64,000 nt of DNA from an uncultured bacterium (GTDB taxonomy: Bacteria; Omnitrophota; Omnitrophia; Omnitrophales; Abzuiibacteriaceae), in NCBI GenBank assembly GCA_964387845.1, contig CAYLXA010000008.1, positions 32,001 to 96,000 on the forward strand, given 5' to 3'. Below, in pieces: positions 23,685 to 64,000 of the stretch (within the stretch, counting starts at the first letter, position 1; each line of letters opens with the position of its first letter). The translations under genes and the position numbers were made by a program. A model generated the notes under the pieces. That model was not told the origin of the DNA. It did not search any database and worked only from the letters and a program-made list of their open reading frames with translations.

Positions 23685-24505
23685 TGACCAGTTCCTATCT
23701 GATCCTTATTTTGCTAATCGTTCTTTATGCGGTTTCGTTTCTGGTACATTTAGGGAATTTTCTTAACAAAGAAACCAGATCGATCAATCCCAACCTGCTT
23801 TTTGAAATCGGATTCCTGCTCCACACATTTTTAATTTTCACGGAAGCGCGCGAAACCCAATTTTTTCTTCCGGTAACGACTTTCCGGGAAGTTTTGATCT
23901 TTTTTGCCTGGTCGCTCGCGTTTGTGTTTGTGATTTTACTCAGGCGAATCAAGCAGGAAAGTTTCGGAATTGTGCTCATTCCATTTTTGCTGAGTTTTCT
24001 GGCGGTCGCGCTCGTGATTGAAGACGGAAAAGCTATTCCGACGACTTATTTCAGCGACCATTATTTTTTGGTCCACATTTTATCGGCCTTTTTTGCTTAC
24101 GCCAGTTTCACACTTTCTTTCGTGGCGTCAGTTTTGTATTTAATTCAATCGCGCCTTATAAAATCCAAGCAGCTTGGCAGTTTTTACCACAAATTGCCGC
24201 CTTTAAATGAGCTGGAAAAATTCATTGTGTATGCAATTGCATGGGGCCTTGTGCTGCTTGGCATCGGGATTTTGAGCGGGTTTTTGTGGGCGCACAATTC
24301 GTTTAAATCTTTTTCGCTTTTGGAACCAAAAACGATTTCCAGCCTGGTGACGTGGCTGGCGTACGGCATTATTTCCTTTCTTTACCGTTTTTCCATTGTG
24401 CGCGGAAAACGGAACGCCAAAGTCGTTTCGCTGACGTTTGCACTTGTTTTGTTTACGTTTTTAGGAACCAGTTTGTTTCAAAATACTTTACATATCGGAA
24501 TGTAA
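23684..24505 (+). CDS. hemX: cytochrome c assembly (CcsA-like) membrane protein, HemX-type, upstream of hemA
   Basis: 8 TM helices; a W-rich CcsA-like segment (WLAYGIISFLYRF); sits immediately upstream of hemA as in hemAXCDBL clusters. Confidence 0.65.
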   Translation: MTSSYLILILLIVLYAVSFLVHLGNFLNKETRSINPNLLFEIGFLLHTFLIFTEARETQFFLPVTTFREVLIFFAWSLAFVFVILLRRIKQESFGIVLIPFLLSFLAVALVIEDGKAIPTTYFSDHYFLVHILSAFFAYASFTLSFVASVLYLIQSRLIKSKQLGSFYHKLPPLNELEKFIVYAIAWGLVLLGIGILSGFLWAHNSFKSFSLLEPKTISSLVTWLAYGIISFLYRFSIVRGKRNAKVVSLTFALVLFTFLGTSLFQNTLHIGM

Positions 24506-24507
24506 CC

Positions 24508-38700: not shown

Positions 38701-41700
38701 AAGCGCCACAAAGCGAAAGAATTTTTACTTTCTGTTCTTCGTGAGATTGGTTTCGATAAAACAAAATCCGAAACCCAGAAAATCGTGAGAGGAAGGGCGC
38801 TTAATTATCTGTTTGCCCACTTTCACAGCTCGGAACTTGCAGCACTGGCCCGGCAGGCAATTGAAAATTTAGGCAGAGAGCAAAGATTTGATTACGATGG
38901 CTGGGCATTTGATAGCGCGTTCATGGAACTTTTGCCTTATCTCGGAGATGAGAATGTTAAAGCGTATATTTTTAATTACTTAAAAGATGATTTTCAATTC
39001 GGAAAAGCTCTCGAAGCTGGGAACTGTTTGGAATACTTGCTGTTCGATTTAGAAACCGCGGAGGTCCCGGGTTGGTTTAAGGAGCGCTTGCAGATTTATT
39101 CGGAAAAAAATGCAGCGGCTATGGATGATTTTGGAATTACGGAAAATCAGGAAGCCTATTTAAATCGAATTAAAAAATTAAATGATTTTCTAGCTCTAAA
39201 AGAAGCCGGAATCGGGCTGCCGTCTTATCAATTTTCAAAATACGTTTTTCGGCCTATTCATTCACAGGATGAAATAGACACACTGCGCAAAATGAGCGGT
39301 TCATTTCCCGGACGACGCCCTGGTTGGAGCCCATGGGATATGACCGATTTTGTATTGGAAGATAGCAAGACCCGTCAAATTGTCGGAGGCGGCATGATTT
39401 CGGAGCATGACTACGACACAGAAGCGCACCATATTCATCTTGTTGCTCTGAGTGACCAGCTGCAAGGCCGGGATAGGGCAGATGCGTTTGTGTTTATTCT
39501 CGCCGGCATGTTGCAATCCATGTCGCCAAAAATCAAAGGCCGGAAAGTTGTTTGGCGCACATGGGTAAAAGATATTCTGGAAAAGACACTCGCGCTTGAT
39601 TTGGCGGGCGTTGATTTAGAACCTCTCATCAATCAAAACCCTGATGATGCACGCTCGGAATTGCTCAGTAAGCCTGAATCGCAGAATCCTATCCTCGAAA
39701 TCAATCAAGATTGGCGAAACATTTTTGATGACAACGCAAAACCGCTGGTGGTGGATGTCGGGTTCGGAAACGGAGAAACACTGCTTTACCGAGCACAGCA
39801 CGAGCCGGACAAAAATTTCATCGGTATCGAACTTCCCGAAGAGCCGTATGCGGATATGCTGGCTGAAAGGATTCAAACAGTGGGAATCAAAAACCTAAAA
39901 GTCCTCAAAGTGGCTGATTTTGAGGCATTTCGCACTCAACTCAAATTCGGGAACCAAGCAATCGTTTCAGAGCTAACTTATTACGATCCGTTTCCGGATA
40001 GTCCTTATGTATTTAGAGAACATACCGCTGATTTACAGCAAATTTTAAAACCCGGCGCGCTCGTTAAAATCATGGTTTTTGAACACGAATTTTGGCAAGA
40101 ACTGTCCGGCATTTTTGAATCCAACGGATTTCAAACGCTAAATCCTGCCGACCATGTTTTTGAGGATAATCATGATACGCAGGATTCAAATGAGGCATTT
40201 AGCACTCAACTGAAACTTATTTTCCGATGGCCCGGTCTATCATCAAATCGTTCCGAATTGCGCCAAGACCTCAAAATTCAGACGATTCTAAACGATATTG
40301 CCCAAAGCAGATTGATTTCGGAGAATCAGCCGGAAACTCGGTCTTTTTTTAATAGAATTTCGGATCGGTTAAAACAAAAATCAGTTTCCCAAACTTTCTT
40401 TTTGACCGGATTGTTACTTTCATCTTATGTCTATATTTTATTCGAGCGCTGGCTTGCTGCCGAGCCGGTCGAATCGAATGCTCAAGAAATAGCTGCCGCC
40501 ATTTTACTATTGGGCATTATTTCTACGATTTTTACCACGATCGTTAAGAGAATGAATAAGTCTAGTACATCCTGGCGCTGGGATGTTATTAGCTTTTCGG
40601 AAAATCAAATCATAGAAGATGCATTGACTTTTCTGGACCCTCACAAACATCAATTAAATCCCAATGTGGATATTATTGTTGAGAAAAGAAGCCACAGGTT
40701 TAAGCGTATTGCCATCGGATTTTTCAAAGAAAGTTTAAAAAATCTTGGCGCCGGTGCAATGTTTTTATTGATAGGAGGCTTTTTAGCTTGGAAAATTGGA
40801 TACGGCCTTCTTGATTTGTACAAGCAAGACCTGCACGCTGCATTTAAAGTCCCTGTCTATGGCATATTCGGCGCGGGGCTGATTGTGTTTGGTTTTGTGG
40901 GCATGATGGGATTTACCGTGCTTTTTCTATCTCCGTTCATTGCTCTTATGCAGGCTTGGGATGGAGAGTTTTCAGATAAGGGAATCGAGGACCAAAGAAT
41001 TTTTGTCCAGCACCAAGAATCCGAAGATGTTTTTTACGAGACGCTAGTTGAAGAATTAAATCACCGTTTCAAACTCCGCCGAGAGCCGCTTCCGGAGTTT
41101 CCAAAAACACTGGATGGTTTGCGGCTCGCCATGATACTCAAACGCTACGGCCTCCCCGGCAGTGAAATTGCGAATCGTTCCGCCTCCGGCCTCCTCCGGG
41201 TCTTGCGCCCTGAAGGGTCAGAGACCGCAGACCGTAACGCTCTCCGAGCCAACGGCTCGATGGAGCCGAGGGCACGGGGGGAACTTCGGCAGTCGGAACC
41301 TCGGAAGATGAGCAGGGCTGAGCTCGCCTCTTTATTCAGGGCGCAGCTACGCGAGGCGAATTTCATTGCATCGATACCGGTGTTGATACAACACGTATGG
41401 AATGTAATCGCCAAATTAGCAAAGCCCCTCAACTTCCAGTTTCGCGAACTAGGCCTAACGCAAGAGCTCCTCCGTTTGCAGACAGGGTTTTGGATCACCC
41501 GATTTGGGCCTGAAGACCGGATGTGGTGGGGACTCCGCGACGGCATGAAGTTCGGAGATACCGTTAATTGGTGGGGGCCTAAACAAAAAAGACCGGAGCC
41601 CCTGGGTTTTCATACCGGGATTGATTTTGTGATGTATCAAAATTTTCAAAAGGCCTGGAAAACAATTCCGGAAGGAACCGAAGTGCAGGCACTCTACGGA

Positions 41701-44700
41701 GGCACGGTGGTTTCCGTATTTCAAGACGACATGCAGAGCACCCTTGTTGTCAATCAAGAGATTACCGATACAGACGGAGGAAATACGCTGGTCACCATTT
41801 ATGCGCACATAGAGCCGGAAACTAACGTTCAGCCGGGCGTAAAAATTGAGGCTGGCGATGTCCTGGGCCGAATCAGGCGGTCGCGCAATGAGCGTTCGAT
41901 TGTTTCGCCTCATCTTCACTTATCGATCGGATGGGCAAAGCCCGAATTTTTTGAACGTCTCAAAAGCGACGGCGTCGATTGGCCGTTTGTGGATGCTTTG
42001 GCAAAAGAAGGCCTTCTGACTTATGTCGATCCGCTTACATTTTTGGATAAAAATGAAGCCGATCATTTTTTTATGAATGCCCAGCACAACAAATTAAAGA
42101 AAATTCTGATTCTAAATACACAGCCAGGCGCTCAATTTTTTCTGACCCGGCAAGTGATTGAAAAACAATTTCCCGGTGTCACGACACTCGCTGTAAGAAG
42201 TTTTGAAGAAGCGCAGAAAATTTTAAATGACCCGTCCAGCGAAATTGATGCGGTAGTCCGTGTTGACGAATCGGCATCAATCAGTTTCCCTAGAAAATAT
42301 TTAAAACGCACGGCCGTTTTAGATTATCAAGAAAAAAACAAAAGAGAATTCTTACGCCAACTGCATGTCGTGAATGTGATCGGCCGCTTGTATCACGAAC
42401 CGATCAGCCGTCTCAACATTCGCTACCGGCTTCAGCGGCGCATCCGTCAGGCGGGAATCCGGACAGTGGGGCAATTGGTTGACCTTGCCAACCTGCCGAA
42501 GAAATTTCGAAAGTTTACAACGGGCCTTTCTAAAGTTCCGGAGGGCCTTGAGCGCCGTTTGCAAGGCTCTCGCTACAAGGATGAGATCATCCGCGCAATC
42601 GTCTCTGTCCAGCCCCAGGCCATTCTGACACGCTCCATTTTGCACAGGCGGTCGCTTGGATTTTTCCAAATGGCGTACCGACTCACATTTGGATTTGAAT
42701 ACCATCCCGAGACGCGCAATTTTGCGGAGCTGATTTTATTCTTAAATGGTTTATCCGGCAGTGTTTTCAAAGAGCTGGTCAAACAATTTGACGTCCATAT
42801 TCAAACCGATTTAATCGATATTTTGCAGCGTGTTGCTCGGATTGCGCCCGAAGCCATTTCTGTCAACGTTCTGGAGATGTTTATCGATGACGAAGAGACT
42901 CCCAAGCGCATGCGCGAAAATTTCAATACCCTGGCAGATTTAATTCACATGGCAAGGAATGATACCAAACGGTTTAAGGAGATTTTTGGATATCAAATTT
43001 CATGGCATGTTTTGCTCTTGCTTCTTGAAATTCTTTACGATGCGGTTCCGGGAGAAATCATGTGGCAGGAATGGCCTGACCTTGTCCACACCGTTCTGAA
43101 TCCGCACAATCTTCCACGCACATTCGGCAGCGGCGGGTTAAGCGGGCATATCAACGCTTACTCAGCGGCCATTCAAGCACATTGGCGCCGGTTGATGGCG
43201 GAGCATAAGGGATATGCAAAAAGAAAAGACCGCTCAGAACTTCGGCAGGCGGGAGATCGGCAAATTTTCCAGAGGGCATTTCAGGGAATTGCTTTCGGTG
43301 GATATGGAGCGGGGCTTATTGCTGCGACTTGGCAGATGCTTACCGTTTATCCGCAAATGTTGAGGCCGTCCTTATTTGTGATTCTGCTTACCTGGAATTT
43401 CTATCAGATCGTGAAACTAATTCTCAAGCAGCCGTTTGTCAGTCAGGAAAAGATAAACCAAGAAAAGTATATTAACCGCCAACTTATCATTACCCATTTG
43501 CCGCAGCTTGGACTCATCAAGGCGCACATGCTAGCACCGTGGCTTGAGGCTTTTATGCAAGCGCCGGAAGTTGGGGCCTTGTTTTTGACGGTCTCCGGTT
43601 TGCTGGTTTCAAAATTGGCCTTTGACAGCTATCTGCGCAATGACGGCAGAGCATCGGGAAGGTCCGAATTGCGCACCAATGACCCGGAAGAGCCGAATGC
43701 CAAAAATCCACGCACGTCTACTTACGAGACTATTATCTCTAACCGCCCGCAAATGAACCCAACTGAAAGTAATACTGAACAAGCAAGCCTGTTCATGGCA
43801 CCGCTTGAAAACGTAACACCGGATGCGGTCCGGTGGCTTGACCGAGTGTTTAATAGCCGGCTTCCGAAGGGCCAGTATGTTTTTGTCGGTGTTGTTGTCG
43901 ATCGCAAAAGCAAAGACATCCAGGCTTTTCAGGATGGCGTTTACATGATTGCAAAATTTCTGGAAGTCGGCGGCGCATTTGAAGAAATCGGATTGAACGA
44001 GATCAAAAATAAAAAACTTCGCCGCAGAATCACGGCCGTCGGCAAAGGATCGTCGGTGCGCGTGATCGAATTTGCGAGTGTCGGCGGGGGCGATGATTAT
44101 GAAATTCCGCTGCGCCGCCTTCAGGGTGTAGTGGAAGATTATTACAGCAATGAACCGATTGTCTGGATCCCGATATCACCGGAAGGAGAACTTTCAAGCA
44201 CATTGGGCTGGAAGCCCAAAAACCGGGCTTTTCATTTGACGTTAGTGCATCAGGCACCGGAGCAAGAGCCGGAGGCGCGCTCTGAGCTTCGCAATGATGG
44301 TGGAATTATTCTTGAAGCCGGACAGCAAATCAAAGCGGTTGAAGGTTATCAAATGCAGCTTCAAGAAAACGGTAGCGTTGCATTTTACCGTGAACGGTTA
44401 AGCAGCCCTGAGCCGGACCCTGTTGAGGTAGTCAAACCCACCATGGCCGGCATGCCTGTTTATGATGAAGCAGGCAATATCATGGGCTATGTTGGCATCA
44501 CACATGACTTTGAAGGCCAAGGGGAAGATAGAAAATTAATTGCAAGAACCGCATTTTATCCGGAGCCTGAATTTGATATTGAGAAAACGCATGTGCCGTC
44601 TACATGGCCTGCTTGGGAGCTGCTCAAGGCGGTTGGGCTTTTGATTCCAAAAGAGGACGCGCATATTCTAAAAATTGAAGACATCAGCCAAACATCTGAT

Positions 44701-47700
44701 TCAAAAATTCACCGGATTACGGTGCGCGTACCGGAAGAGCAGAGTTTTCCGCTTCGCGGTATTGAAATTCTAGCACGCGAATTAATTGAGAATCCATCCG
44801 CTGAACAGCAGTTTGATCTTGTTTACAATGAGAAAGGACATTTGTTGGCTGTATTTCCCGTTTTTGGAAATGAAAATAGGGCCGCTGCGGAGGATGGCTT
44901 ATTTCTTGATGTCAGTCCGTACTATTTTGAAGTTCCGAAGGACATTCGAGGAGAGTCGAAACTCCTGATAGATCAATTTTTGCGCGAGTGGAGACAAAAC
45001 CAACAGCATATCCAAGCCTATCAAAAAAAGCATTTCGGTTCTAATCGGATGAATTTCTGGCATTTTAGTTATAACAATGACGAAAATAATGATGAAGATA
45101 ATAAAGAGGAGCCTCTTTATCAGTTTTATCATTTACTTCATAGTCACGGCCATGATCTTAGTTATTTGGGGGAAGTTGAAGTTCAATCTTTGGAGCATAT
45201 TTTTTACTACGTTAGTAAAGATCCGGATAGGAAAATGTTATTGTTACCAATTTTCCCAACGGTCTTCCCGCCATCCGGCGATCCCCAGCACGACACGGAA
45301 TATCATAAGGCTATTTTGATCGATCCCAGATTTGATTTAAATGAGAATCAGCGGACTCTTGTGGTAGGTTCCGGAAGCGGATTTGACACATGGCTTGTTT
45401 CCCTCAAAACACGCAAGACCGTGAGTGTAATTGACATTAATCCACTGGCGGTAGCCAACACAAAAGCGCTTGCGAAAATTGCAGGCTTCAAAGTTTTAGC
45501 TAGAACGGCTGACAATATCGTCGATGAAAGCGGAAAGCCCACTTTTCCAGATGCCCGGTTTGATCGAATTATTTGGAATATGCCCGAGCATGTTGAAGGT
45601 GATGGGCCCAGCCACGGGCAATTAGCAACCCAAAGGACCAAGTGGTATTTAACAGATCATTGGGATGGCGACGTCGATGGTTTCAGCTTGACCCGGTTTG
45701 CTTCAGGGCTTTGCGACATTTTAAATCCTGACTCGCGCGTTTTAATTTGGAATTCGAATAACGAAGATTCAATTTTGAATGCCTTTGAAAACCGCGGCAT
45801 GGAAGTTGAACGTGCAGGCCTCAATTATCGGTACAGTTTGTATTTTATTCAACCATCTGCCGCTGCAGGCGAGCTTTTGGAACCGATTTCTAACTCTGCA
45901 GATCAACGAAGCGAACCTCAAAAACACATTGCCGTGCTTCAACGGTTCAAGCACAATCCGACCGGATTTATGGGGTGGCTCAAGAACGAAATCGCCGAAG
46001 TTTTGACAATCATTGACATGCCGAGCGGTCAGTTTATGAAACTGCCTGATGCGGAAAGAAGGAAGAAAAATCAACGTATTGAAAACGCAATTTCCATGCT
46101 TTACGGCGTAGAAGATTTTATTTCGGCTAAAGATGCGGCAAAAATTATCAAGAATATTGACGAGGCACGCCGCATGTTGGACGAGATTTACCAAATGTCC
46201 GAATGGCGTAAAAATGATTTTTCCGCTATCCGCGGAGGGAAGCAAGATTCCAAACTTCCGGCAAGCACCGAGCAAGCGTGGCACGCACGGGATATTTTTA
46301 ACGAATTTCTTCCGAAAAATGGGCTAGGAGAAGCGCTTCAGAAATACACGGGGGATAAAAAAGTATTGGATACCGCAGCGGAGAAATGGCTGCCTGTTTT
46401 TACGCGCGTTCCGAAACATTTATTCATGCCGAAATATTTGCGGCAGGATGCTTATTTGCATGATGCGCCGTACCGAATCGGTTATGGCCAGACAATCTCA
46501 CAACCGTCTCTGGTTGCATTTATTCTGGCGCTGCTTGATTTAGAGCCCTCGGATGAAGTTTTGGAAGTCGGCGCAGGCAGCGGATGGTTGGCCGCGCTGA
46601 TGTCGCAGCAAGCGGCGCATGTCTATGCGACAGAACTCATTCCGCAGCTTGCGGGCCGTGCGGAGCGGGTGATTGAGAATATGGGAATTCAAAATGTCAG
46701 CATTGTTGAAGCCGATGGTTCGGTTGGTTATCCACAGGCGGCTCCGTTCGATAAAATCGTCGTTTCAGCCGGCAGCCCCAATGTTCCGGAACTGCTTGTG
46801 AACCAGCTCCGCGAAGGAGGCTTGCTGATCATTCCGGTTTTGGATCCTGCAGCGTCAAAAAAGCAGAAGTCTTACAAGCTGACATTATTTGTGAAAGAAG
46901 GCGGTAAATTGACAGAAAAACTTGCCATCGATAGGGTTAATTTTGTTGATCTGCGCGGTGTGCACGGTTGGCAGCCGGCGCCAAAACGTTCCGAGCTTCG
47001 CCGAGCCGCACAGCCGAAAGATTCAAACAGTGAAAAATCAACGCCGAAGCCCGAGACCGAGTCAGACCGGCGCATCATCCGGGCAGTTAATTATTTTCTG
47101 AAAGAAAAGAGGCCATTCAATCAAGGCGATATCGCCAAAAAAGCAAGAGTCAGCTTGCAAACGGTTACAAACCGGAAGCACGCAAATCCGTCGATCGCTC
47201 GGTTTGTTGATTGGGCCCTGGAGAAAGCGCCTAAGGCTGAGCCTAAATCCGTTCAAGCTCTAATCCGGGCCGCAAAGCAGTTGAAAAAAGAAGGAAAATC
47301 GGGCGTGACCAATTCAGTTGTTGCGGACCTAGCCGGTTATCATCCACAAACCGTTACCAGCATAAGCAAGTTATATCCTAAGGTAAAACAAGCTGTGCAG
47401 GGGGCGCGTCAATCTCCGCACGCACAGATTTCTCCCACGATTCAGAAAGTTGTGGATGTTATTAAAGCGGCCGCGAAGAAAAAACAAGTGTTTCAAAACG
47501 AAGGCCAAATCGCGCAAGCAGCCGAAATCAGGCCTGAAACGTTGAGCCGGATTAAGAAGCGGCGGTCCTCCTATCGGGAACCATTTCTCCAACTGCTTCA
47601 ATACGCCGTAAGCGACCCGGACCGTGCGCTTGAGATCATTAAAAAACACTTCTCGATTCATTCCGAACAGCGGGTTTCTGTCCAAGCATCCGCTCAAGAC

Positions 47701-50700
47701 GAGAACTTGAGGTCGGAACTACGGGCTGACGGTGCTATCCAAGATCCGGGCATGGTCGTTACGGCTTTGATCGGGGTAGCCGCATTCGGAATCCTGATTT
47801 TTGGTTTTGATTCAGTCCGAGAGCGGGCATTTAAAGTTGGAAGTGCTGCACTCAAATTGATCCGCCGACTCTTCTGGCTATGGACCGGTGTTTTGTGGAT
47901 TTCCACCCATTTGGCTTACGCTGCTCATCGTGTCCGCCCGGATTCTCAAGATAAAATTTACCAAGCAACAGGTTTTGACCCCGGCGATCTAAATTATTCA
48001 GAGTTTTTGTATCCATGGGCTATTTTTACCGTGTTTATTTATCCCGTTGCCGCGTTCGGCTTGATGCGTTACCTGAATCGCTTGGTCATGCGCCGAAACG
48101 TTCTGCCATTCGAAACTTCGCCCTCAAGGTCCATTCCGGCTCACCCTACAACGTCCGAGTTAGATATTAATCGGAAAGTCGGGACGGCCCAGCCTTCCGA
48201 TCAATATTCAAAAGATCCTTTAATGAAAGGCAGGGCTGAACTCAGAGCGTCGGGTTCGAATCCCAAGAAGAAAGACACAAGTAAAGCAACGGACTTGGAA
48301 AAAAGGTTTAAGGAACTTTTGGAAGAGGCAGATAGAACGCTTGAGGCAAACAAACAACTTGAGGATGGACTTGATGAAATCCACAAAGTGCTGCCGGAAT
48401 TACCCAAAGACATCATCGATGGACGCTCCGAGCTGCGCCAATCTGACCCGATTGGCACTGCTTCGGCTTTGCCAGGCCCTCTGGCAAAGTCCGAGCTGCG
48501 CAATTTCTTGCCGAATCAGAACCCGATCAACCGTTTGGACGCCAAGCAAGGTTCCGGAATTGGTGCACGGGGCAACGTTTTGGAAGGCCGTTCCGGATCA
48601 AATTCTGAGTTTTATAATTATCGGGGCGAAAAAGTACTTGTACTGCCGACTAGCACCGCAAAAGGAATATTAGGTTTGGGTGATTTTATCGTTGTGATGC
48701 CACGCCCCAAGCCCGGCACGCAAGATCACATTCTCTTTTATAATTCGTCCGGCAGTTTGTTGTTTGAAGCAGTGAACGTTTCAGACTATTCGTTAGTAGG
48801 AGAAAATATGGCCATTAAATTTGCCAACGGCAATATCCAGTTTTATGACAAGACAGGCAAGAAGCTACTTAGTTCATTCGATCATTTTTCAAACTTTCAC
48901 CCAAGCCAAATTGACTTACAGGGCGATTTATTGGTATTTAAAAAATCAAGCAATGAGGTTGGTTTTTATAATTCGACAGGTTCACTTATTTTACGAAAGT
49001 CAAAAGGCACTGATTTTGACAGTTTTTATGTGAAAGGTTCATTTATCGTATTGGTTAAAAAAGATAATCACCATGTCTACAGTGGGCTTACAGGTAAGCT
49101 GATTGCAAAAACCCAGGCAAGCGTGGGTGAAACCGCGCAATTTGACGGCGACTTTTTTGCTGTGGTTAATTGGAATGAATTTACATTCTATAATCTTCAA
49201 GGGAAAAAAATTCTTGAGAAACGAACAGGTTCAGGTGACGATAATTTTATTAACTGGTCCGGCGAAGGCGGCCTTTTGACTTTTGATAAAACACATTCCC
49301 GGACGTTTTACGATGAAAACGGGAAGTTATTAGCTGCCATCCAAAAGCGTGTATTCGCTTCCAGAGTTGTCAACAAAGTGTTGCGCTTAGAAGACAACGC
49401 TGATTTTTATGAATGGTACGATTTCAGCCCTAATGCGTTATCGGCGTCTTCAAAAGGACAAAAATCGCTTGATCAAATTTTTAGCCATAACCCGGCCATG
49501 CTCTCGCGGATCCGGGATTATGTAAAAAGAAGGTACGATAATCCGCTCATGTCGCGCGAAGAGCCGAACCACGATCTTTCATCCGACCTGGATGACGCAT
49601 CGAATTTGATTCAATTGGAAAAAATGCCAACCGAATGGATTGACGACCTCTCATCCTTGGTTTTAACCGGTTACAATCCGTCGGACAAGGGCGCGCGTTC
49701 AATTTTAAAGGAAGCCGCGATTCAGCTTGGATTGATTCAAGCTCCGTCATCTCAAACGAAAGAAGCGGTTCCCATTACCTATAACCAAAAAGCGCTTATG
49801 CGGATCTTAAGCAGCGGTGTCATTACGGAAGCCATCCGAAACGGGCAATTTTCCTTTCCAACAACAGGTAAGAGAAGTAGTCTTATTTTTCTTTCTGACG
49901 ATGGAACCAATGTAAAGAGGATTGATGAAACGGATTCTGCTAAAGCCAACGTGCAGCTCGAATTTTATCTGTCGAGCGATAATCGCACAGTGGGTGTGTC
50001 CATCAGTGTCCGAGATGATAATAAGGCAAGTGGGTGGCGAGTACAGCATGAAGAACCTAAGCAACTCAAAGATCTTCAGACATCCATTGAACCTGCAAGC
50101 TCGAAACCCTCGTTGACTATTGTTAGCGCGAGAAAACAACGCACCCTTGATGAATTGATAAACAAAGTGAGCAAGTTCCCAGGTTGGAGCAATCCTGGCC
50201 CTTCAACATATTCTTTCGCTCATCAGGCAACGCAGATATCTGCTTTCTATACCGGAATTGTCCCTAACTTGCAACCACGCTGGGCATGGCATTTAAAAGT
50301 GATCTCGTCTGGTTATAACCTAAGCGTTGTTGTTGAAGATCATATTCAATCGCCAGGGAAATGGATAACGGTAGTTAAATTTAATAACTCCGGAAGTAAT
50401 AATTCTGTGGCCTCGCAAGAATGGGGTAACCATCTGATCGATATTGAACAAAATGGTTTAAAAACAAATATCTACATGACGAAGGCTTATGTGGATTCTT
50501 TGGTCAAAAACAGAATCCCGCTTAAAGGTGCAACTATAGATGGAGTTGAGTGGGAATTTATTCCGATCAATCCGAAACAAATTCTTCCGGCAAAATCAGA
50601 ATTGAGAACCCAAGCAGAGCAGGTTTCTATAGAAACGCTGGATGCGGCGCTTTCGGTGGAGCCCAAAGCACAAAACAGGTTGGATGCCGTCATTCATGAA

Positions 50701-51261
50701 ATCCGGAATAATTCATCAAGTGCCGTACGTTCAGAATTAAAAGTTCAGAGCGAGAAATTGGTTCAATTTTTAACCGGCGGACAAAATAGAGCCACGTCAT
50801 TGTCGGGCACTGCCGAAGCTGCCAACGCGCGCTCGGCGTTTGTCTTTTTGCCCGGAACCACCAATGAGCTGGGCGCTGTTTTTAACCAGATTACAGAAGC
50901 TCTTGCCGCCAAAAGCGAATTGAGAGCCGAAATCATTGCTTACGTGGATGGCCCGTTGATGGCGCGCACAATCCGTGAAATCATCCTCGGTGTTCAGGGC
51001 GCTGAGCGTGTCCATATCGTGGCGAGTAATGAAGAGGCCGTGGCTAAAGCTCAGTCTCTAAACGTTGCGCATGCACATTTGATCGGATGGGAGGGGGAGC
51101 TTGAAGCGCCGTTTGTCCAAAATTTGGAGGACAGCTACCTGAAGCTCGGTATTCGCGTGGTGAAGAAAAATGTAAGTGATTTCATGAGTTTTCTCGGGCG
51201 TGAGGCCGCTCGTTTTATCCAAGGATGGAAATCAGCAGTTCTCTACGCCAAATCCGCATAA
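35716..51261 (+). CDS. giant multidomain secreted/membrane protein (5181 aa): signal peptide, 4 TM clusters, two class-I SAM-MTase folds, M23 peptidase, protein-L-isoaspartate O-methyltransferase domain, 3x HTH, beta-repeats; ~18 [RK][SGA]EL[RK] linker motifs
   Basis: Single uninterrupted ORF of 15.5 kb. GTG start with a signal-peptide-like N-terminus (MRKKPFFIKAIALALCFTFIATDTIAYS). Domain motifs are listed as separate features. Confidence 0.9.
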   Translation: MRKKPFFIKAIALALCFTFIATDTIAYSDAAQTSPQLAEMLKQSSNWLSLRAATISGLFRNAAPSVSGTRLPAAAPKFARYLSELRNEANEKPVTADYISAQTIQNQKTNEITPPPQSELRQEKPRFKSRHSFFNHAIQLSRNLFKLSEWKHRILRLSSSFGNLPDDILFLVTTLPILIGILIVDALDNFHDNPKTNARIWFWVVTSSAVWLFSVLTANVVLFRFQKPAKRKLPAKSDQKVQRSELRGHSGVGSYVIGDLEFNKGDPTGFELIKRLIGEVRAGLLTGELQKAGLDQDSISHIFRLASSPSKSAREPIGFKYSEAAGQFELIKNDLRTYLHQLQKTQNHDHEINVYALGLGNLPVEAEEVIKLFLNVMEEELGEAAKNWSFNFIGIDFQDEPIKVARKYFAEDMASLKEKGFRKVTLQAVKANALSSSELTRVFEETGGSKKADYLFHRHVMYVNRASSWLNQLRGLTPITMLRPVLADALESYLQSQNLIGAFTKTGTRYVIEPLASSDPSIREVVIPGSSVLPQENGAAGSGIYIVNDPAVFTATGFIQYLQDQLGENFSISGPLRVDRTGGRGELRRASNFHFVNTVRRVLRREIAQIEKDKWQNWAVGFEPVQDVASHLVRGAKGELWIHLHLTYHGHDKRARFAENGVYDLGLLFRITDRENQLTLDAPMIEPQIGRSDYFAFTRAETVLSSEQAARLVKEGTEFVNSHAGPIRSAMRLAKKKPSSIHNLLGRAVSPRHARGLYNMMTLGHEEKRVIDRTKRRSVTYRFVGSRRSELRQKSELDSAREFVAHAIQTGQLKLDLFDRGREPAKQILQEVLAENQKRKTDHIQEVETARHKIATFESRFKKIRDEIDFDPFKPLAPTEQEKIMEWWADDLYMMEYEIRNYLAEIQSGQHPFSGNELDQVVDALIAAYRWSMDVVAFFEKQKAELLFFRNQETTDSEESADTMAALSGAFSVLADIKSPRGQIPENVFFAIAATKRHKAKEFLLSVLREIGFDKTKSETQKIVRGRALNYLFAHFHSSELAALARQAIENLGREQRFDYDGWAFDSAFMELLPYLGDENVKAYIFNYLKDDFQFGKALEAGNCLEYLLFDLETAEVPGWFKERLQIYSEKNAAAMDDFGITENQEAYLNRIKKLNDFLALKEAGIGLPSYQFSKYVFRPIHSQDEIDTLRKMSGSFPGRRPGWSPWDMTDFVLEDSKTRQIVGGGMISEHDYDTEAHHIHLVALSDQLQGRDRADAFVFILAGMLQSMSPKIKGRKVVWRTWVKDILEKTLALDLAGVDLEPLINQNPDDARSELLSKPESQNPILEINQDWRNIFDDNAKPLVVDVGFGNGETLLYRAQHEPDKNFIGIELPEEPYADMLAERIQTVGIKNLKVLKVADFEAFRTQLKFGNQAIVSELTYYDPFPDSPYVFREHTADLQQILKPGALVKIMVFEHEFWQELSGIFESNGFQTLNPADHVFEDNHDTQDSNEAFSTQLKLIFRWPGLSSNRSELRQDLKIQTILNDIAQSRLISENQPETRSFFNRISDRLKQKSVSQTFFLTGLLLSSYVYILFERWLAAEPVESNAQEIAAAILLLGIISTIFTTIVKRMNKSSTSWRWDVISFSENQIIEDALTFLDPHKHQLNPNVDIIVEKRSHRFKRIAIGFFKESLKNLGAGAMFLLIGGFLAWKIGYGLLDLYKQDLHAAFKVPVYGIFGAGLIVFGFVGMMGFTVLFLSPFIALMQAWDGEFSDKGIEDQRIFVQHQESEDVFYETLVEELNHRFKLRREPLPEFPKTLDGLRLAMILKRYGLPGSEIANRSASGLLRVLRPEGSETADRNALRANGSMEPRARGELRQSEPRKMSRAELASLFRAQLREANFIASIPVLIQHVWNVIAKLAKPLNFQFRELGLTQELLRLQTGFWITRFGPEDRMWWGLRDGMKFGDTVNWWGPKQKRPEPLGFHTGIDFVMYQNFQKAWKTIPEGTEVQALYGGTVVSVFQDDMQSTLVVNQEITDTDGGNTLVTIYAHIEPETNVQPGVKIEAGDVLGRIRRSRNERSIVSPHLHLSIGWAKPEFFERLKSDGVDWPFVDALAKEGLLTYVDPLTFLDKNEADHFFMNAQHNKLKKILILNTQPGAQFFLTRQVIEKQFPGVTTLAVRSFEEAQKILNDPSSEIDAVVRVDESASISFPRKYLKRTAVLDYQEKNKREFLRQLHVVNVIGRLYHEPISRLNIRYRLQRRIRQAGIRTVGQLVDLANLPKKFRKFTTGLSKVPEGLERRLQGSRYKDEIIRAIVSVQPQAILTRSILHRRSLGFFQMAYRLTFGFEYHPETRNFAELILFLNGLSGSVFKELVKQFDVHIQTDLIDILQRVARIAPEAISVNVLEMFIDDEETPKRMRENFNTLADLIHMARNDTKRFKEIFGYQISWHVLLLLLEILYDAVPGEIMWQEWPDLVHTVLNPHNLPRTFGSGGLSGHINAYSAAIQAHWRRLMAEHKGYAKRKDRSELRQAGDRQIFQRAFQGIAFGGYGAGLIAATWQMLTVYPQMLRPSLFVILLTWNFYQIVKLILKQPFVSQEKINQEKYINRQLIITHLPQLGLIKAHMLAPWLEAFMQAPEVGALFLTVSGLLVSKLAFDSYLRNDGRASGRSELRTNDPEEPNAKNPRTSTYETIISNRPQMNPTESNTEQASLFMAPLENVTPDAVRWLDRVFNSRLPKGQYVFVGVVVDRKSKDIQAFQDGVYMIAKFLEVGGAFEEIGLNEIKNKKLRRRITAVGKGSSVRVIEFASVGGGDDYEIPLRRLQGVVEDYYSNEPIVWIPISPEGELSSTLGWKPKNRAFHLTLVHQAPEQEPEARSELRNDGGIILEAGQQIKAVEGYQMQLQENGSVAFYRERLSSPEPDPVEVVKPTMAGMPVYDEAGNIMGYVGITHDFEGQGEDRKLIARTAFYPEPEFDIEKTHVPSTWPAWELLKAVGLLIPKEDAHILKIEDISQTSDSKIHRITVRVPEEQSFPLRGIEILARELIENPSAEQQFDLVYNEKGHLLAVFPVFGNENRAAAEDGLFLDVSPYYFEVPKDIRGESKLLIDQFLREWRQNQQHIQAYQKKHFGSNRMNFWHFSYNNDENNDEDNKEEPLYQFYHLLHSHGHDLSYLGEVEVQSLEHIFYYVSKDPDRKMLLLPIFPTVFPPSGDPQHDTEYHKAILIDPRFDLNENQRTLVVGSGSGFDTWLVSLKTRKTVSVIDINPLAVANTKALAKIAGFKVLARTADNIVDESGKPTFPDARFDRIIWNMPEHVEGDGPSHGQLATQRTKWYLTDHWDGDVDGFSLTRFASGLCDILNPDSRVLIWNSNNEDSILNAFENRGMEVERAGLNYRYSLYFIQPSAAAGELLEPISNSADQRSEPQKHIAVLQRFKHNPTGFMGWLKNEIAEVLTIIDMPSGQFMKLPDAERRKKNQRIENAISMLYGVEDFISAKDAAKIIKNIDEARRMLDEIYQMSEWRKNDFSAIRGGKQDSKLPASTEQAWHARDIFNEFLPKNGLGEALQKYTGDKKVLDTAAEKWLPVFTRVPKHLFMPKYLRQDAYLHDAPYRIGYGQTISQPSLVAFILALLDLEPSDEVLEVGAGSGWLAALMSQQAAHVYATELIPQLAGRAERVIENMGIQNVSIVEADGSVGYPQAAPFDKIVVSAGSPNVPELLVNQLREGGLLIIPVLDPAASKKQKSYKLTLFVKEGGKLTEKLAIDRVNFVDLRGVHGWQPAPKRSELRRAAQPKDSNSEKSTPKPETESDRRIIRAVNYFLKEKRPFNQGDIAKKARVSLQTVTNRKHANPSIARFVDWALEKAPKAEPKSVQALIRAAKQLKKEGKSGVTNSVVADLAGYHPQTVTSISKLYPKVKQAVQGARQSPHAQISPTIQKVVDVIKAAAKKKQVFQNEGQIAQAAEIRPETLSRIKKRRSSYREPFLQLLQYAVSDPDRALEIIKKHFSIHSEQRVSVQASAQDENLRSELRADGAIQDPGMVVTALIGVAAFGILIFGFDSVRERAFKVGSAALKLIRRLFWLWTGVLWISTHLAYAAHRVRPDSQDKIYQATGFDPGDLNYSEFLYPWAIFTVFIYPVAAFGLMRYLNRLVMRRNVLPFETSPSRSIPAHPTTSELDINRKVGTAQPSDQYSKDPLMKGRAELRASGSNPKKKDTSKATDLEKRFKELLEEADRTLEANKQLEDGLDEIHKVLPELPKDIIDGRSELRQSDPIGTASALPGPLAKSELRNFLPNQNPINRLDAKQGSGIGARGNVLEGRSGSNSEFYNYRGEKVLVLPTSTAKGILGLGDFIVVMPRPKPGTQDHILFYNSSGSLLFEAVNVSDYSLVGENMAIKFANGNIQFYDKTGKKLLSSFDHFSNFHPSQIDLQGDLLVFKKSSNEVGFYNSTGSLILRKSKGTDFDSFYVKGSFIVLVKKDNHHVYSGLTGKLIAKTQASVGETAQFDGDFFAVVNWNEFTFYNLQGKKILEKRTGSGDDNFINWSGEGGLLTFDKTHSRTFYDENGKLLAAIQKRVFASRVVNKVLRLEDNADFYEWYDFSPNALSASSKGQKSLDQIFSHNPAMLSRIRDYVKRRYDNPLMSREEPNHDLSSDLDDASNLIQLEKMPTEWIDDLSSLVLTGYNPSDKGARSILKEAAIQLGLIQAPSSQTKEAVPITYNQKALMRILSSGVITEAIRNGQFSFPTTGKRSSLIFLSDDGTNVKRIDETDSAKANVQLEFYLSSDNRTVGVSISVRDDNKASGWRVQHEEPKQLKDLQTSIEPASSKPSLTIVSARKQRTLDELINKVSKFPGWSNPGPSTYSFAHQATQISAFYTGIVPNLQPRWAWHLKVISSGYNLSVVVEDHIQSPGKWITVVKFNNSGSNNSVASQEWGNHLIDIEQNGLKTNIYMTKAYVDSLVKNRIPLKGATIDGVEWEFIPINPKQILPAKSELRTQAEQVSIETLDAALSVEPKAQNRLDAVIHEIRNNSSSAVRSELKVQSEKLVQFLTGGQNRATSLSGTAEAANARSAFVFLPGTTNELGAVFNQITEALAAKSELRAEIIAYVDGPLMARTIREIILGVQGAERVHIVASNEEAVAKAQSLNVAHAHLIGWEGELEAPFVQNLEDSYLKLGIRVVKKNVSDFMSFLGREAARFIQGWKSAVLYAKSA
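39718..40095 (+). other. giant protein domain: class-I SAM-dependent methyltransferase fold (TrmB-like; VVDVGFGNGE...IGIE)
   Basis: aa ~1335-1460; motif I VDVGFGNGE and a post-I acidic residue. Confidence 0.6.
41578..41940 (+). other. giant protein domain: M23 (LytM-type) metallopeptidase
   Basis: aa ~1955-2075; HTGIDF (HxxxD) ... GDVLGRI ... SPHLHLSIGW (HxH). Confidence 0.7.
45328..45750 (+). other. giant protein domain: second class-I SAM-MTase fold (LVVGSGSGFDTW...VIDINP)
   Basis: aa ~3205-3345; glycine-rich motif I and a DxN/P motif. Confidence 0.55.
46423..46875 (+). other. giant protein domain: protein-L-isoaspartate O-methyltransferase (PIMT/Pcm)
   Basis: aa ~3570-3720; IGYGQTISQPSLVAFILALLDLEPSDEVLEVGAGSGWLAALMS closely matches the PIMT consensus (GxTISQP...VLEIGTGSGY). 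Confidence 0.75.
47083..47595 (+). other. giant protein region: three tandem helix-turn-helix-like units
   Basis: aa ~3790-3960; FNQGDIAKKARVSLQTVTN / VTNSVVADLAGYHPQTVTS / QNEGQIAQAAEIRPETLSR. Confidence 0.5.
48613..49395 (+). other. giant protein region: ~5 beta-strand repeats (FY[ND]xxGxLL..., WG-repeat-like)
   Basis: aa ~4300-4560; FYNSSGSLLF, FYDKTGKKLL, FYNSTGSLIL, FYNLQGKKIL, FYDENGKLLA with ~50-aa periodicity. Confidence 0.5.
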
Positions 51262-54755: not shown

Positions 54756-54761
54756 GAACGA

Positions 54762-60774: not shown

Positions 60775-60812
60775 AAAACGGGACAGCTTTTAAGCTGTCC
60801 CGTTTTGTATTT
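60775..60812 (+). terminator. rho-independent terminator
   Basis: aaaacgggacagc-ttttaa-gctgtcccgtttt + gtattt. Confidence 0.75.
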
Positions 60813-60957
60813 GACCCTTCTGTGTAGGTTCTAGCAATTCAGATTCTGATATGAAAGGTTACAATATTAGGTCGATAAATATATATAATCGGTATATTCA
60901 ATTTAGAATATCAATGTAAGTCTTTTATTTATAATACTTTATGTATTTATATTTCAT

Positions 60958-60986
60958 TTGAACAAACGAGATTAAAGTGCTAAGAT
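60958..60986 (+). promoter_or_regulatory. putative sigma70 promoter TTGAAC-17-TAAGAT in a 190-nt AT-rich tract
   Basis: catttgaacaaacgagattaaagtgctaagat lies 15 nt upstream of ATG 61001. Confidence 0.35.
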
Positions 60987-61000
60987 TCGATCACGGTTAA

Positions 61001-64000
61001 ATGAAAGTTATGCAAGGCCAAAAATATACCGCTCACCTTAAATTTGTTTCCTTATTCTTAATTATCACACTTCTTTTAAACTCAGTTGCTTGGGCAGATC
61101 CGCCGAACGCTCATTTCTCGAAACTACCGCCCCATGTTTCGGTTTCTCATGTTAGTGAACCGATTCAACTCCGCGATTTAAATGTCCTCGTTGATTACTT
61201 GACCGCCGACTTAAAGAACGAAGTTAAAATTGATATATCCAAAGAAACAGGAATCATTCGATCTATTTTACGACATGATTCGCATTCTAGCCCTTTTGAT
61301 TTTGATGTTGTTTTAATTCAGGATGCGCATGTCGATAACGAAGCGCAAACCAATATTCGACAAATTCTTCATTCTTTGTCAAAACAGATCGACCAACCGT
61401 TACTTATTGCGTTGGAGGGTACGAGCGGAAATTTAGAACCGAATATATTAAATTTCTTTCCGGACTATCCAAAAATCAATTCAATAATTGTGGAGGACTT
61501 GGAAAAGAGGGGAGAGCTGACAGGCGCTGAACGCTTCGCGTTTGAAAATCAACGGAATAAAACGCTTCTGGAATTTTGGGGGGCCGAAAACATTGATCAA
61601 TACAAACAAAACCTTTCCGAATTTCGAGACGCTCTTCGGTTTTTTATAAATCATACCTCAGAACTCGAGCAAGCTGAGAGCCGGCTTGCCGGATTTCGCA
61701 AGCAAATTTTGAATCCTGAATTATGGTTCTTCCTAGAAAAGAGGGATGCTTTTTTAAAGGAAGAAGTTGATTTAGCTGCTTATCTTACTTTTCTTCAGAG
61801 TGAGGCGATTCAGCATATAAAGCTTAATTTAGCCGATATTAAGCACCAATTTGATTTTCCAAATCTGGTTCGCTTTTCAAAACTTAAATACGAGGAAAAT
61901 AAATTAAATCCTGAAAAGGCTTTGGAAGAATGCAGCAAACTTCTCTCTCTCGTTCAGAAGGAAATACCGAAAGGAAAAATTCAAAGTTATCTAACAGAAC
62001 ATCTCTGGCATCTTTCAAGAGATGTTTCTTTGCAACTGCCACAAAGTTCTCATCAAAATTTTTTTACTTCTGACCGACCTGTTATTACAGAAAAATCGCC
62101 GAACGTACGAGAGTTGTTTGAAATACTTCACGCTTCTTCGTTTATCTACAAATTTTCATTAGTACCGTTTCGAAACCTCATCCGTCTCGGACGTTTTTTG
62201 GCATTTCAATCGGAAATTGATGCCGCATCATTTTTTCAGGAGGTCCGTAAATTAGAAAGTTTGATCATTCGACGATTGGCCAAAACGCGCGAAGAGAAAA
62301 GACTTTTAGCTGCTGTGACTCGATGGAATTTGGTAAAAAAACTTTATGCACTTGAACTCAGTCGTTCGGAATTTTTGGATTATCAAAAATCGAAGCCACG
62401 GATATTAAAAACAATCTTGCGCTTTTTCCCCGCGCTTCCGGCGCCTGCACTTTCAGAAAAATTCTACGATGGAGCATTAAAGCGCGACCATGTTCTTGTC
62501 CAAAACGCGCTTAATCATGCGGCCGGACGGCCCGTCATCATGGTAGCGGGCGGGTTTCATGCTGACGGAATCGAATCTTATCTTCAAGACAACAATTTAT
62601 CGTACGCAACCATTTCTCCGTCTATCAAAAACCCGAGCAAAGACCGCGAATCCTATTTTAAAACCTTTCAAGACGAAAACATCTCCTTTATTGTGGATAT
62701 GCTGCGCACGAGCAATCCCGGCTTTTTTCGATCTGTCCGCGGCGAAAGACAATTCAATCTATTCGCTTTGGCAATTAGAAATCAGGAGGCCAATTTAGTT
62801 CGCATTTATTCTTTGACCCCCGAACAAGCGCGCTCGGAAATCAGGCAGGCGCTGGATCGGTGGCGTTTTCAATCCAGATCGGAATTGCGGCAAGACAGAA
62901 GTACCATTGTTACACCTGATAAAATCGAATCAAATTTTTCCAACAGTTCAGCAAGTCGCGCTCGAGAAACGATCATTCCTCAAAGAATTCATCCCGGCAC
63001 AATTGAAAAAATGCAAATTCCGTGGAGTTACAAATTAAGTCCAAAGTATTTTTGGAATTATCACAAAGCTTTAAGCCTGTCGGGCCTGGTTGTTTTTGGC
63101 CTGCTTTTATTTACAGCCGTAACCGGAAGAATTTTAGAACCGTTTACTGTTTTTTACTCCACGGTTTTTGCAGGCCTTTTAATGGCTCAAGCGGCCCGGT
63201 TTATCAAGAACCTCCTGATTCCTCCGGCGCATTATGTCATGCGAGATGACGGTGTCGCATTATTAGATACTCATAACATAGAAATATTAAATCAAATCGT
63301 CTATCAATCCGAGATTCCATCCGCGATTTACATTGCCGTTGAAGATCAATTTGAAGGCAAAGATGAGAAAAGGCCGAATTATGAGGCCGTAAAAGCCTAT
63401 GTTGAATTTCGCCAGGGATCATCACAGGGGTTTCGAAAAGTGAAAATCATTCCGCTCAGTAGATTGGGGCGGTTGTATTACACAAACCTTTACAATCAAA
63501 ATCAAACCGGTGTGAAAAACATCATTTCAAGAAGTTTTCTCTTTGTGTGGAAATGGAAATTGTGGATATGGATGCCTTTACTGCTTCCGGTTTGGTTGGC
63601 CGCAAATTTTCTCACGTTTGGTTATCTCAATCACGATTCTTTAATTCATTTTTACGGCGTAAAACCATTGCAAGGATGGGTAAGCTTGACGGATGTATCC
63701 GAATGGCTTCTGCATCTCAAATGGAGTTTTCTGCATCGAATCGAAATTCTCTTGTTCCTGGCGAATGATTGGTTTAACAACACAAACAGCCTGTCCCCAT
63801 GGTTTCAAACTATCGTATCGAATATTTTAACCAATCTAAGCGCCAAGTTATTTTCGTTATCAGAAACGCCGGGGTTATTCAGCTTGTACGCGGCAAAAGA
63901 AAAGGCAACAGACTACATTGCCTGGACTACGGTGATGGAGTCACTGACGTTTATCAGTTTTTTAGGTTTGGTAACGTTGGCGATGCTTTGGCTCCATTGG
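61001..64000 (+). CDS. large secreted/membrane protein, >=1000 aa, 3' end beyond window; absent from the ORF track (no in-window stop); carries an RSELRQ motif
   Basis: Hand translation of the frame starting at 61001 gives no stop codon through 64000. N-terminus MKVMQGQKYTAHLKFVSLFLIITLLLNSVAWADPP (signal peptide). It contains ...FQSRSELRQDRS... at ~62873..62890 and TM helices after ~63060. Confidence 0.7.
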   Translation, partial: MKVMQGQKYTAHLKFVSLFLIITLLLNSVAWADPPNAHFSKLPPHVSVSHVSEPIQLRDLNVLVDYLTADLKNEVKIDISKETGIIRSILRHDSHSSPFDFDVVLIQDAHVDNEAQTNIRQILHSLSKQIDQPLLIALEGTSGNLEPNILNFFPDYPKINSIIVEDLEKRGELTGAERFAFENQRNKTLLEFWGAENIDQYKQNLSEFRDALRFFINHTSELEQAESRLAGFRKQILNPELWFFLEKRDAFLKEEVDLAAYLTFLQSEAIQHIKLNLADIKHQFDFPNLVRFSKLKYEENKLNPEKALEECSKLLSLVQKEIPKGKIQSYLTEHLWHLSRDVSLQLPQSSHQNFFTSDRPVITEKSPNVRELFEILHASSFIYKFSLVPFRNLIRLGRFLAFQSEIDAASFFQEVRKLESLIIRRLAKTREEKRLLAAVTRWNLVKKLYALELSRSEFLDYQKSKPRILKTILRFFPALPAPALSEKFYDGALKRDHVLVQNALNHAAGRPVIMVAGGFHADGIESYLQDNNLSYATISPSIKNPSKDRESYFKTFQDENISFIVDMLRTSNPGFFRSVRGERQFNLFALAIRNQEANLVRIYSLTPEQARSEIRQALDRWRFQSRSELRQDRSTIVTPDKIESNFSNSSASRARETIIPQRIHPGTIEKMQIPWSYKLSPKYFWNYHKALSLSGLVVFGLLLFTAVTGRILEPFTVFYSTVFAGLLMAQAARFIKNLLIPPAHYVMRDDGVALLDTHNIEILNQIVYQSEIPSAIYIAVEDQFEGKDEKRPNYEAVKAYVEFRQGSSQGFRKVKIIPLSRLGRLYYTNLYNQNQTGVKNIISRSFLFVWKWKLWIWMPLLLPVWLAANFLTFGYLNHDSLIHFYGVKPLQGWVSLTDVSEWLLHLKWSFLHRIEILLFLANDWFNNTNSLSPWFQTIVSNILTNLSAKLFSLSETPGLFSLYAAKEKATDYIAWTTVMESLTFISFLGLVTLAMLWLHW

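Follow-up and report, generated by a model that had tools for sequence, protein, structure and literature searches.

Near the end of the 64,000-nucleotide stretch of Omnitrophota DNA analysed here (the window), an open reading frame (ORF) that starts at position 61001 and runs off the stretch is a real gene for a 1564-residue modular membrane protein, referred to below as the target. We are highly confident of its architecture and of its family membership: it opens with a conserved head module related to the TIKI fold superfamily, and R-S-E-x-R pentapeptides lie in the linkers that follow. The same pentapeptide recurs in a giant ORF upstream in the window and in large proteins from other Omnitrophota genomes, and, apparently undescribed until now, it marks module joints in the large and giant proteins of these bacteria across the phylum. 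In the form R-[S/A]-E-[V/M/L/A/I/T]-R it is very probably an inter-module junction signal, also in proteins that lack the head, such as the 5181-residue giant ORF. The features discussed are collected in Table 1.

Table 1. Features of the target gene and of related elements in the window. Positions are nucleotides of the window; residue numbers refer to the target unless stated otherwise.
Feature	Position	Strand	Basis or remark
Target coding sequence, first 1000 of 1564 codons	61001..64000	+	Translation; P0001; L001
N-terminal hydrophobic segment (aa 13-31), LKFVSLFLIITLLLNSVAW, then A-DPP; signal peptide or membrane anchor	61037..61093	+	Hydropathy
Omnitrophota-specific head module (aa ~80-557) with TIKI/ChaN/erythromycin-esterase-fold alpha/beta core	61238..62671	+	Alignment; AlphaFold2 model; profile search
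D108-A-H110 of IQDAH, first acid and first His of the putative 2His/2acid catalytic set	61322..61330	+	
E139 (LEG motif), 29 residues after H110	61415..61417	+	Invariant in 124/124 modules
R495	62483-62485	+	Likewise invariant; alignment of modules
GGFH (aa 517-520), H520 being the candidate second catalytic His	62549..62560	+	H520 invariant in 121/121 modules
RSEIR (aa 611-615), first junction motif	62831..62845	+	In the low-confidence tail after the head
RSELR (aa 626-630)	62876..62890	+	Tandem pair with RSEIR 15 aa upstream
Polytopic hydrophobic region, strong at aa 690-708 and 978-996, weaker at aa 722-740, 846-864 and 903-921	63068..63988	+	Kyte-Doolittle only
Continuation of the polytopic region, hydrophobic aa 1025-1043			Outside the window
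Giant ORF, 5181 aa, of the same class	35716..51261	+	Nine RSELR; ends ...YAKSA
RSELR copies in the giant ORF	36442, 38077, 40249, 43231, 43660, 44278, 46987, 47710, 48424		
Terminator-like hairpin AAACGGGACAGC-TTTTAA-GCTGTCCCGTTT, then TGTATTT, at the end of the upstream porin gene	60776..60812	+	Equivalent hairpin in sister genomes

The frame opens with an ATG directly preceded by an in-frame TAA (60998-61000) and continues for 1000 codons without a stop to the last nucleotide of the window, as had been read by hand in a first-pass annotation of this DNA. Retranslation on the extended contig places the stop at the equivalent of position 65695, 1.7 kb past the end of the window, so that the complete protein is large, not giant. 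The gene was missing from the ORF list because its frame runs off the window, frames of this kind going unlisted for want of an in-window stop, which is the reason the annotation had suspected. A database protein of 1564 residues (P0001) is 100% identical to the part of the target encoded in the window, and the contig that carries it (L001) is 100% identical to the window over 13 kb, with the target at L001:10001-14695; the sequence has been assembled independently twice, in a 108-kb NCBI contig and in a Logan contig. The annotation was also right that this is a real gene for a large, membrane-associated protein with a non-random motif in common with the giant ORF upstream.

The N-terminal hydrophobic segment of the target is followed by the conserved head, by a linker of low model confidence (residues 560 to 690) and by four to six hydrophobic segments between residues 690 and 1043, as judged by Kyte-Doolittle hydropathy only. 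The C-terminal part comprises an orphan soluble region (residues 1047 to 1285) and residues 1291 to 1564, with a third copy of the motif between them, and the tail is an orphan domain of about 270 residues ending in an amphipathic helix, ...IKTLLSFA. Some 650 residues devoid of hydrophobic segments separate the N-terminal helix from residue 690, and the layout first proposed (hydrophobic N terminus, soluble region of that length, helices from there on) therefore stands; its signal peptide is one of two readings of the N terminus, the other being a membrane anchor, and the n-h-c layout with AWA-D fits a signal peptide by eye only. Neither Pfam nor NCBIfam models matched anywhere in the target (E 0.01 or 0.1), an exhaustive search of 1.84 billion representative proteins with residues 1030 to 1564 found only the protein itself, and phmmer searches of the local Omnitrophota set with the middle and C-terminal parts of the target and with the termini of the giant ORF gave no match. 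A single-sequence AlphaFold2 (AF2) model of residues 1047 to 1564 was unusable (predicted local distance difference test [pLDDT], 40).

All 20 distant homologues of the target match only its N-terminal ~500 to 650 residues and continue into unrelated sequence. The shared region carries, behind a hydrophobic N terminus, the signature IQDAH...LEG...FY-x5-R...GGFH, which the target has in full (15-sequence alignment A1, of which a 5-sequence sub-alignment was used to gather related loci). hmmsearch with a profile of the head found 126 members in the local set, the target included; residue 108 is Asp or Glu and residue 110 is His in 124 of 124 modules. In the AF2 model of the head (15-sequence alignment; pLDDT, 77), the alpha/beta core is split by a conserved helical insertion of about 300 residues (residues 198 to 507). 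The catalytic 2His/2Glu set of TIKI proteins consists of an E-x-H motif, a Glu about 28 residues further on and a distal His in GxxH, the spacing being 28 in both Bcr135 and RRSP (PMC6254334). The head resembles the TIKI / TraB-PrgY / ChaN / erythromycin-esterase superfamily (Bcr135/136, EreB/C, ChaN, HopBA1, RRSP, and Tiki1/2) in its fold, which has the parallel beta-sheet core of TIKI proteins, in its 2His/2Glu-type residue set and in its His-to-Glu spacing. It is unlike the superfamily in its ~300-residue insertion, in being found, within our sample, in Omnitrophota only and in forming the N-terminal part of very long multimodule proteins. The Pfam and NCBIfam models for this superfamily (TraB_PrgY_gumN, Cofac_haem_bdg, and Erythro_esterase) all miss the head, even at an E value of 0.1, and a search of PDB sequences with the head profile returned noise only, such as troponin C at an E value of 0.2. 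Because the fold and the catalytic residues fit but the curated sequence models do not match, the head is a new family inside the TIKI fold superfamily and not a member of any named one. Its intact [D/E]-x-H...E...H set predicts an active hydrolase, which would be a peptidase or an esterase.

The head is the common N terminus of proteins that range from about 730 to more than 3500 residues and carry unrelated cargo. It is often present in several copies per locus, with at least two head modules within 20 kb in 25 of 80 loci, and at 12 loci a short paralogue of about 730 residues lies beside, and divergent from, a head-bearing ORF of more than 3400 residues (L034:7401-9581, L040:4359-6566, L062:2107-4335, and nine more). 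These short paralogues consist of a hydrophobic N terminus, the head and a tail ending in ...KAA or ...KSA, and they contain no junction motifs. The cargo behind the head bears on topology. Among the homologues it includes two UDP-glucose dehydrogenases, a histidine-kinase ATPase (HATPase), a PAS-GGDEF pair and a PrmA methyltransferase, all of cytoplasmic type, and in P0004, P0005, P0014, and P0020 a signal-like N terminus and the head are followed by enzymes with cytosolic cofactors, with no transmembrane helix in between. The earlier designation of the target as a secreted envelope protein is therefore not established. One explanation is that the N terminus serves as an anchor instead of directing export; the other is that these enzymes work beyond the producing cell, for example inside a host or prey cell.

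The pentapeptide first reported in the target, RSELR, is indeed there, slightly displaced from where it had been placed and within FQSRSELRQDRS (residues 623 to 634; 62867-62902). It forms a pair with an RSEIR just before it, and completion of the ORF added one further exact copy, RSELR at residue 1286, beyond the window and in a predicted coil (low-confidence model). The recurrence of the motif in the giant ORF was likewise borne out: that protein has nine exact copies, together with one RAELR, three KSELR and one RSELK, and RSELR occurs nowhere else in the six frames of the window. By residue shuffling (20000 and 4000 shuffles, none of which reached the observed counts), the expected number of RSELR is 0.0027 in the full target, where two are found, and 0.007 in the giant ORF, where there are nine; for RSE.R in the target, three are observed and 0.02 expected. 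The codons of the five motif residues differ synonymously between copies and the flanks are unrelated, and so it is the peptide that is conserved. A DNA-level explanation of the motif, as an uptake or recombination site, was rejected on account of this codon variation.

The motif was surveyed in 527 ORFs (367 thousand residues) from 80 Omnitrophota loci that had been selected through the head module. They contain 288 copies of RSE.R and 82 of RAE.R, compared with 1 to 37 for scrambled versions of equal composition. Across the sample, position four holds V, M, L, A, I, T or S, and in the clade of the window only L. Motif density rises with protein length, from 0.05 to 0.09 per 1000 residues in ORFs shorter than 600 residues to 0.9 in those of 1000 to 2000 residues and 1.6 in those of more than 2000, and the motif is present in 79 of the 110 ORFs of at least 900 residues and in 64 of the 80 that bear a head. 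Flanking positions carry less than 0.35 bit each and, set against random sites in the proteins concerned, are less hydrophobic and more disorder prone (p ~1e-31). The 80 head cores contain just three motifs between them, the first motif follows GGFH by 56 to 240 residues in 58 of 64 proteins, and the median distance from one motif to the next is 221 residues. In nine motif-rich ORFs with 92 motifs in all, Pfam envelopes contain not one of these, compared with 9.4 expected.

Recognizable domains sit between the motifs. A URO-D unit begins 27 residues after one motif and ends 5 residues before the next; the corresponding distances are 9 and 50 residues for a glycogen synthase (GT5 plus GT1) and 11 and 4 residues for a HEAT unit, and five tandem REC domains spaced about 145 residues apart have motifs on both sides of each. 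The giant ORF of the window contains TrmB-like, M23, MTS-like, and PCMT domains, of which the TrmB-like domain ends 2 residues and the PCMT domain 7 residues before a motif. Where orthologous giants can be compared, the pentapeptide is a conserved island in gapped linkers, about 20 residues ahead of a conserved block (global alignment of 11 orthologous giant ORFs; 7940 columns, very gapped, with three informative motif columns). The few BLAST blocks still common to the giant ORF and its sister giants are bounded by motifs on both sides, and one of them lies elsewhere in a sister; the motif thus marks the joints of modules that are exchanged as units. Full-text searches revealed no published description of an R-S-E-x-R motif. 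A general k-mer screen of the large ORFs that lack the motif revealed no alternative junction k-mer. Separately, [A/K/S/N/G]-S-L-G, which was not picked up by that screen, recurs at sites that resemble junctions, close behind the head and in the vicinity of the C-terminal domain, in three head proteins free of R-S-E-x-R (P0002 at residues 593, 1328 and 1358; P0005 at residues 495, 514 and 1112; P0014 at residues 562 and 1363), and it may be an alternative junction motif of another lineage.

Large Omnitrophota ORFs also have a common C-terminal signature: their last ~20 residues form an amphipathic helix that ends in ...[S/A]A (for example in L034, L049, L055, and L072). Among 34 complete ORFs of at least 1000 residues, 22 end in Ala (12 in SA and 6 in AA), compared with 9% of ORFs shorter than 600 residues. 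The giant ORF closes with ...YAKSA (51217-51261), its sister orthologues with ...AKAA and ...AMSA, and the target with ...LLSFA (L001:14650-14692), in which the final Ala fits the signature and the preceding position is Phe, not Ser or Ala. Possible roles for the signature include sorting, degradation (as a degron) and the docking of a protease. A common C-terminal domain was considered and rejected: the last 320 residues do not form one family, and only the terminal ~20 share the pattern.

What the junction motif does is less certain than where it lies. We propose that the five residues are the recognition site of a dedicated endoprotease, which would cut multimodule precursors into separate proteins in the manner of polyprotein maturation. 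An endoprotease is favoured because the pattern matches that of polyprotein junctions: a short conserved peptide, disordered linkers, native-like module termini, drifting surroundings and a fourth position tuned to the lineage. Taken as a whole, this account of a modular protein, a junction motif and processing by an endoprotease is the best explanation we can offer, and we regard the chances of its being correct as about even; that the motif itself is a cleavage site, judged from its position, falls somewhat short of probable. The TIKI-like head would be a candidate for the enzyme, cutting in cis at its own C-terminal boundary, while the free ~730-residue paralogues would cut in trans. It is a candidate because it is an invariant hydrolase-type domain from a superfamily that includes sequence-specific endopeptidases (Tiki and RRSP), because it comes first in most carriers and is itself followed, at its C-terminal edge, by a motif, and because the free short paralogues could serve carriers without a head, such as the giant ORF of the window. 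Nevertheless, we consider it rather unlikely that the head is the junction protease, and equally doubtful that the large and giant ORFs of Omnitrophota are true polyproteins cut at R-S-E-x-R by the head in cis and in trans.

A number of observations weigh against processing or against the head as its agent. The motif is absent from 12 of 21 first-round homologues and from 31 of the 110 large ORFs, and some motif-bounded segments hold more than one domain or span only 8 to 30 residues. In P0010, P0013, and L066, motifs lie 2 to 9 residues from the C terminus, where a cut would free only a tiny peptide, so that a docking signal fits equally well. Known TIKI peptidases (Tiki and RRSP) do not cleave Arg-rich sites, and the giant ORF of the window has motifs but no head. 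Enzyme and sites could also be on opposite sides of the membrane, because the N terminus looks export-like while much of the cargo is cytoplasmic in type. Head and motif co-occur in a sample that is biased in this respect because the loci were reached through the head. Finally, we infer hydrolase activity, cleavage and the identity of the protease alike, and the argument for processing is a purely positional one.

The strongest competitor to cleavage, improbable though by no means negligible in our estimate, is that the motif is a short linear docking motif that is not cut. A partner would bind each linker while the long chains stay whole, and it might be a chaperone, a scaffold, an enzyme that modifies Ser or Arg, or insertion machinery such as the SecA-like domains reported in the giants, helping to fold, insert, organize or regulate the protein. 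Placement in linkers, information-poor flanks and enrichment in long proteins fit docking as well as they fit cleavage, and the motifs close to C termini, like the tandem pairs 8 to 20 residues apart (residues 611 and 626 in the target), suit avidity or docking better than release; many giants are, moreover, predicted to be membrane anchored through many transmembrane helices. Against docking stands the nature of the modules: enzymes that are normally soluble oligomers (glutamate dehydrogenase, URO-D, glycogen synthase, and PCMT) are strung together with native-like termini 2 to 50 residues from motifs, as they would be in a polyprotein, and no candidate binding partner was identified.

Much less probable is a motif without any recognition role, a passive by-product in the form of a recombination scar or of a favoured linker composition. 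The swapping of motif-bounded modules between sister genomes and the compositional bias of the linkers would agree with this. However, the free variation of the five codons leaves no conserved DNA site, permutations of identical composition are 8- to 50-fold rarer than the motif, and the pentapeptide is kept at aligned positions amid surroundings that cannot be aligned. The restriction of the fourth residue to Leu in the window's clade likewise speaks against a by-product and, being specific to the lineage, points to coevolution with a reader protein.

The first-pass annotation had gone further and suggested that the target and the giant ORF belong to one homologous family of secreted, RSELR-bearing envelope proteins, with perhaps more giants downstream. 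Both do have a hydrophobic N terminus and transmembrane helices, carry R-S-E-x-R in their linkers and close with an amphipathic helix whose last residues are ...[S/A/F]A, and we regard this set as the signature of a class. Homology is another matter, and we hold the single-family explanation to be very improbable. BLASTP found nothing beyond the pentapeptide itself (E 0.8), the giant ORF has no head, and it is questionable whether the head is exported. Nor does another giant lie downstream: the target ends at residue 1564 and is succeeded by a 92-residue gene and then by gltB. The giant ORF itself evolves extremely fast. In two sister genomes whose HemL is 85 to 88% identical to that of the window, its counterparts (L082:1-9914 and L084:1-8721) keep a similar size, the type of motif and the C-terminal tail, and only ~930 C-terminal residues can be aligned to the latter and two short blocks to the former. 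A word-indexed protein search with the giant-ORF module at residues 4263 to 4959 (48502-50592) gave zero matches, even the parent protein and a 57%-identical sister orthologue being absent from the results. Such a search may cover or index very long proteins poorly, and a missing match for a piece of the giant ORF is therefore not evidence of absence.

The weakest alternative, that the long open frame is no real gene or is an assembly artefact, draws on the lack of relatives for residues 1030 to 1564, the low confidence of the single-sequence model of the C-terminal part and a G+C content below that of the neighbouring genes, and we dismiss it, since a 4.7-kb open frame in DNA of 41% G+C is very improbable by chance, the N-terminal 560 residues place it in a large family whose catalytic residues do not vary, independent assemblies gave the identical sequence, and the orphan part holds the class motif and, at least in part, the class C-terminal signature.

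Searches gave 20 distant homologues and 155 genomic relatives of the target, all the named ones being from Candidatus Omnitrophota, and the closest named sequences to HemL, encoded next door, are from Omnitrophica metagenome-assembled genomes. Both sister genomes have the same gene order as the window (giant ORF, hemL, TolC/MFP/MacB, ispH, a small gene, and a porin), and in both the porin is followed directly by gltB, the target and the adjoining 92-residue gene, which encodes a putative secreted protein, being absent. The extra DNA is about 5 kb long (60813-64000 in the window; L001:10001-15345), begins with an AT-rich stretch (60813-61000) and has a G+C content of 40.6%, the value for the target itself, compared with 46 to 51% in the neighbouring genes; the porin terminator and the promoter and leader of gltB are conserved on either side of it. 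Because the sister genomes lack the insert, the flanks are conserved and the G+C content is low, we conclude that the target and the 92-residue gene form an insert specific to this lineage, bounded by the porin terminator and by the promoter of gltB. A consensus terminator scan did not call the hairpin at the end of the porin gene, and an exact database look-up of the porin gave no record.

Several further features of the neighbourhood were noted. The TolC/MFP/MacB cassette beside the giant ORF (52761-57027) is inverted relative to both sisters (L082:12751-17004 and L084:11291-15580), and the genome of the window lacks an ECF sigma factor and two small genes that L082 has. The haem genes of the window (24352-29217 and 51308-52573) comprise hemA, hemC, cobA/hemD, and hemB in succession and, set apart from these by kinases, acs, and the giant ORF, hemL. 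The next haem enzyme, uroporphyrinogen decarboxylase, is a motif-bounded module (residues 1799 to 2192) of an ORF of more than 3500 residues in another Omnitrophota genome (L048:5212-15735).

Omnitrophota have the longest ORFs known, of up to 85,000 to 147,000 residues. Their giants have been described as having a signal-like N terminus, an N-terminal region without identifiable domains, many transmembrane helices, embedded enzymes (methyltransferases, peptidases, and metabolic enzymes), implausible predicted localizations and poor conservation, and proteolysis has been suspected (Seymour et al. 2023; West-Roberts et al. 2023; 10.64898/2026.06.07.730766), although no information on cleavage points was given with that suspicion (West-Roberts et al. 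2023). The 5181-residue ORF of the window and the head-bearing ORFs of more than 3400 residues fit the description of these giants ("Archaeovorins"), and the TIKI-like head, the R-S-E-x-R motif and the C-terminal ...[S/A]A helix are not described in those papers. The head provides a first annotation for the apparently domain-free N-terminal region. In the strict sense, a protein of the "Archaeovorin" type is tens of thousands of residues long and combines glycosyltransferase, methyltransferase, hydrolase, and NUDIX domains; the target, at 1564 residues, has none of these domains, and the neighbouring 5181-residue ORF has methyltransferase and peptidase domains yet remains far below that size. 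With a pentapeptide at the module joints, the question of whether giants remain single chains or are cut becomes directly testable: the motif predicts exact product boundaries for proteomics and offers points at which giant ORFs can be divided by computer, so that the resulting units can be annotated and their structures predicted. If the head were the protease, a sizeable share of ordinary enzymes (glutamate dehydrogenase, URO-D, glycogen synthase, PCMT, TrmB, and response regulators) would be cut from membrane-tethered precursors.

Outside the phylum, the functionally nearest analogues are the MARTX toxins and the polyproteins of viruses or of the gingipain type. MARTX toxins are likewise very large and carry unrelated effector modules on linkers that are cut by a built-in protease, and one of those modules, RRSP, has a TIKI fold. 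They differ in that the target has neither RTX repeats nor a cysteine protease domain, and the modules of the Omnitrophota proteins are mostly housekeeping enzymes, not toxins. Pfam domains for RTX repeats or the cysteine protease were found in neither the target nor the giant ORF, and the ABC exporter nearby is of the MacB type, not the HlyB type. MARTX processing sites follow Leu and do not resemble R-S-E-x-R. In viral and gingipain-type polyproteins, a short conserved peptide recurs at module boundaries while its flanks vary, the products have native-like termini, and the protease resides in the same chain. There, cleavage has been established experimentally, whereas here we infer it, and here dozens of cellular, nonviral enzymes are joined in one ORF. 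If cleavage at the motif occurs, the production of a cellular proteome in Omnitrophota would rely on polyproteins to an extent that only viruses are known to reach.

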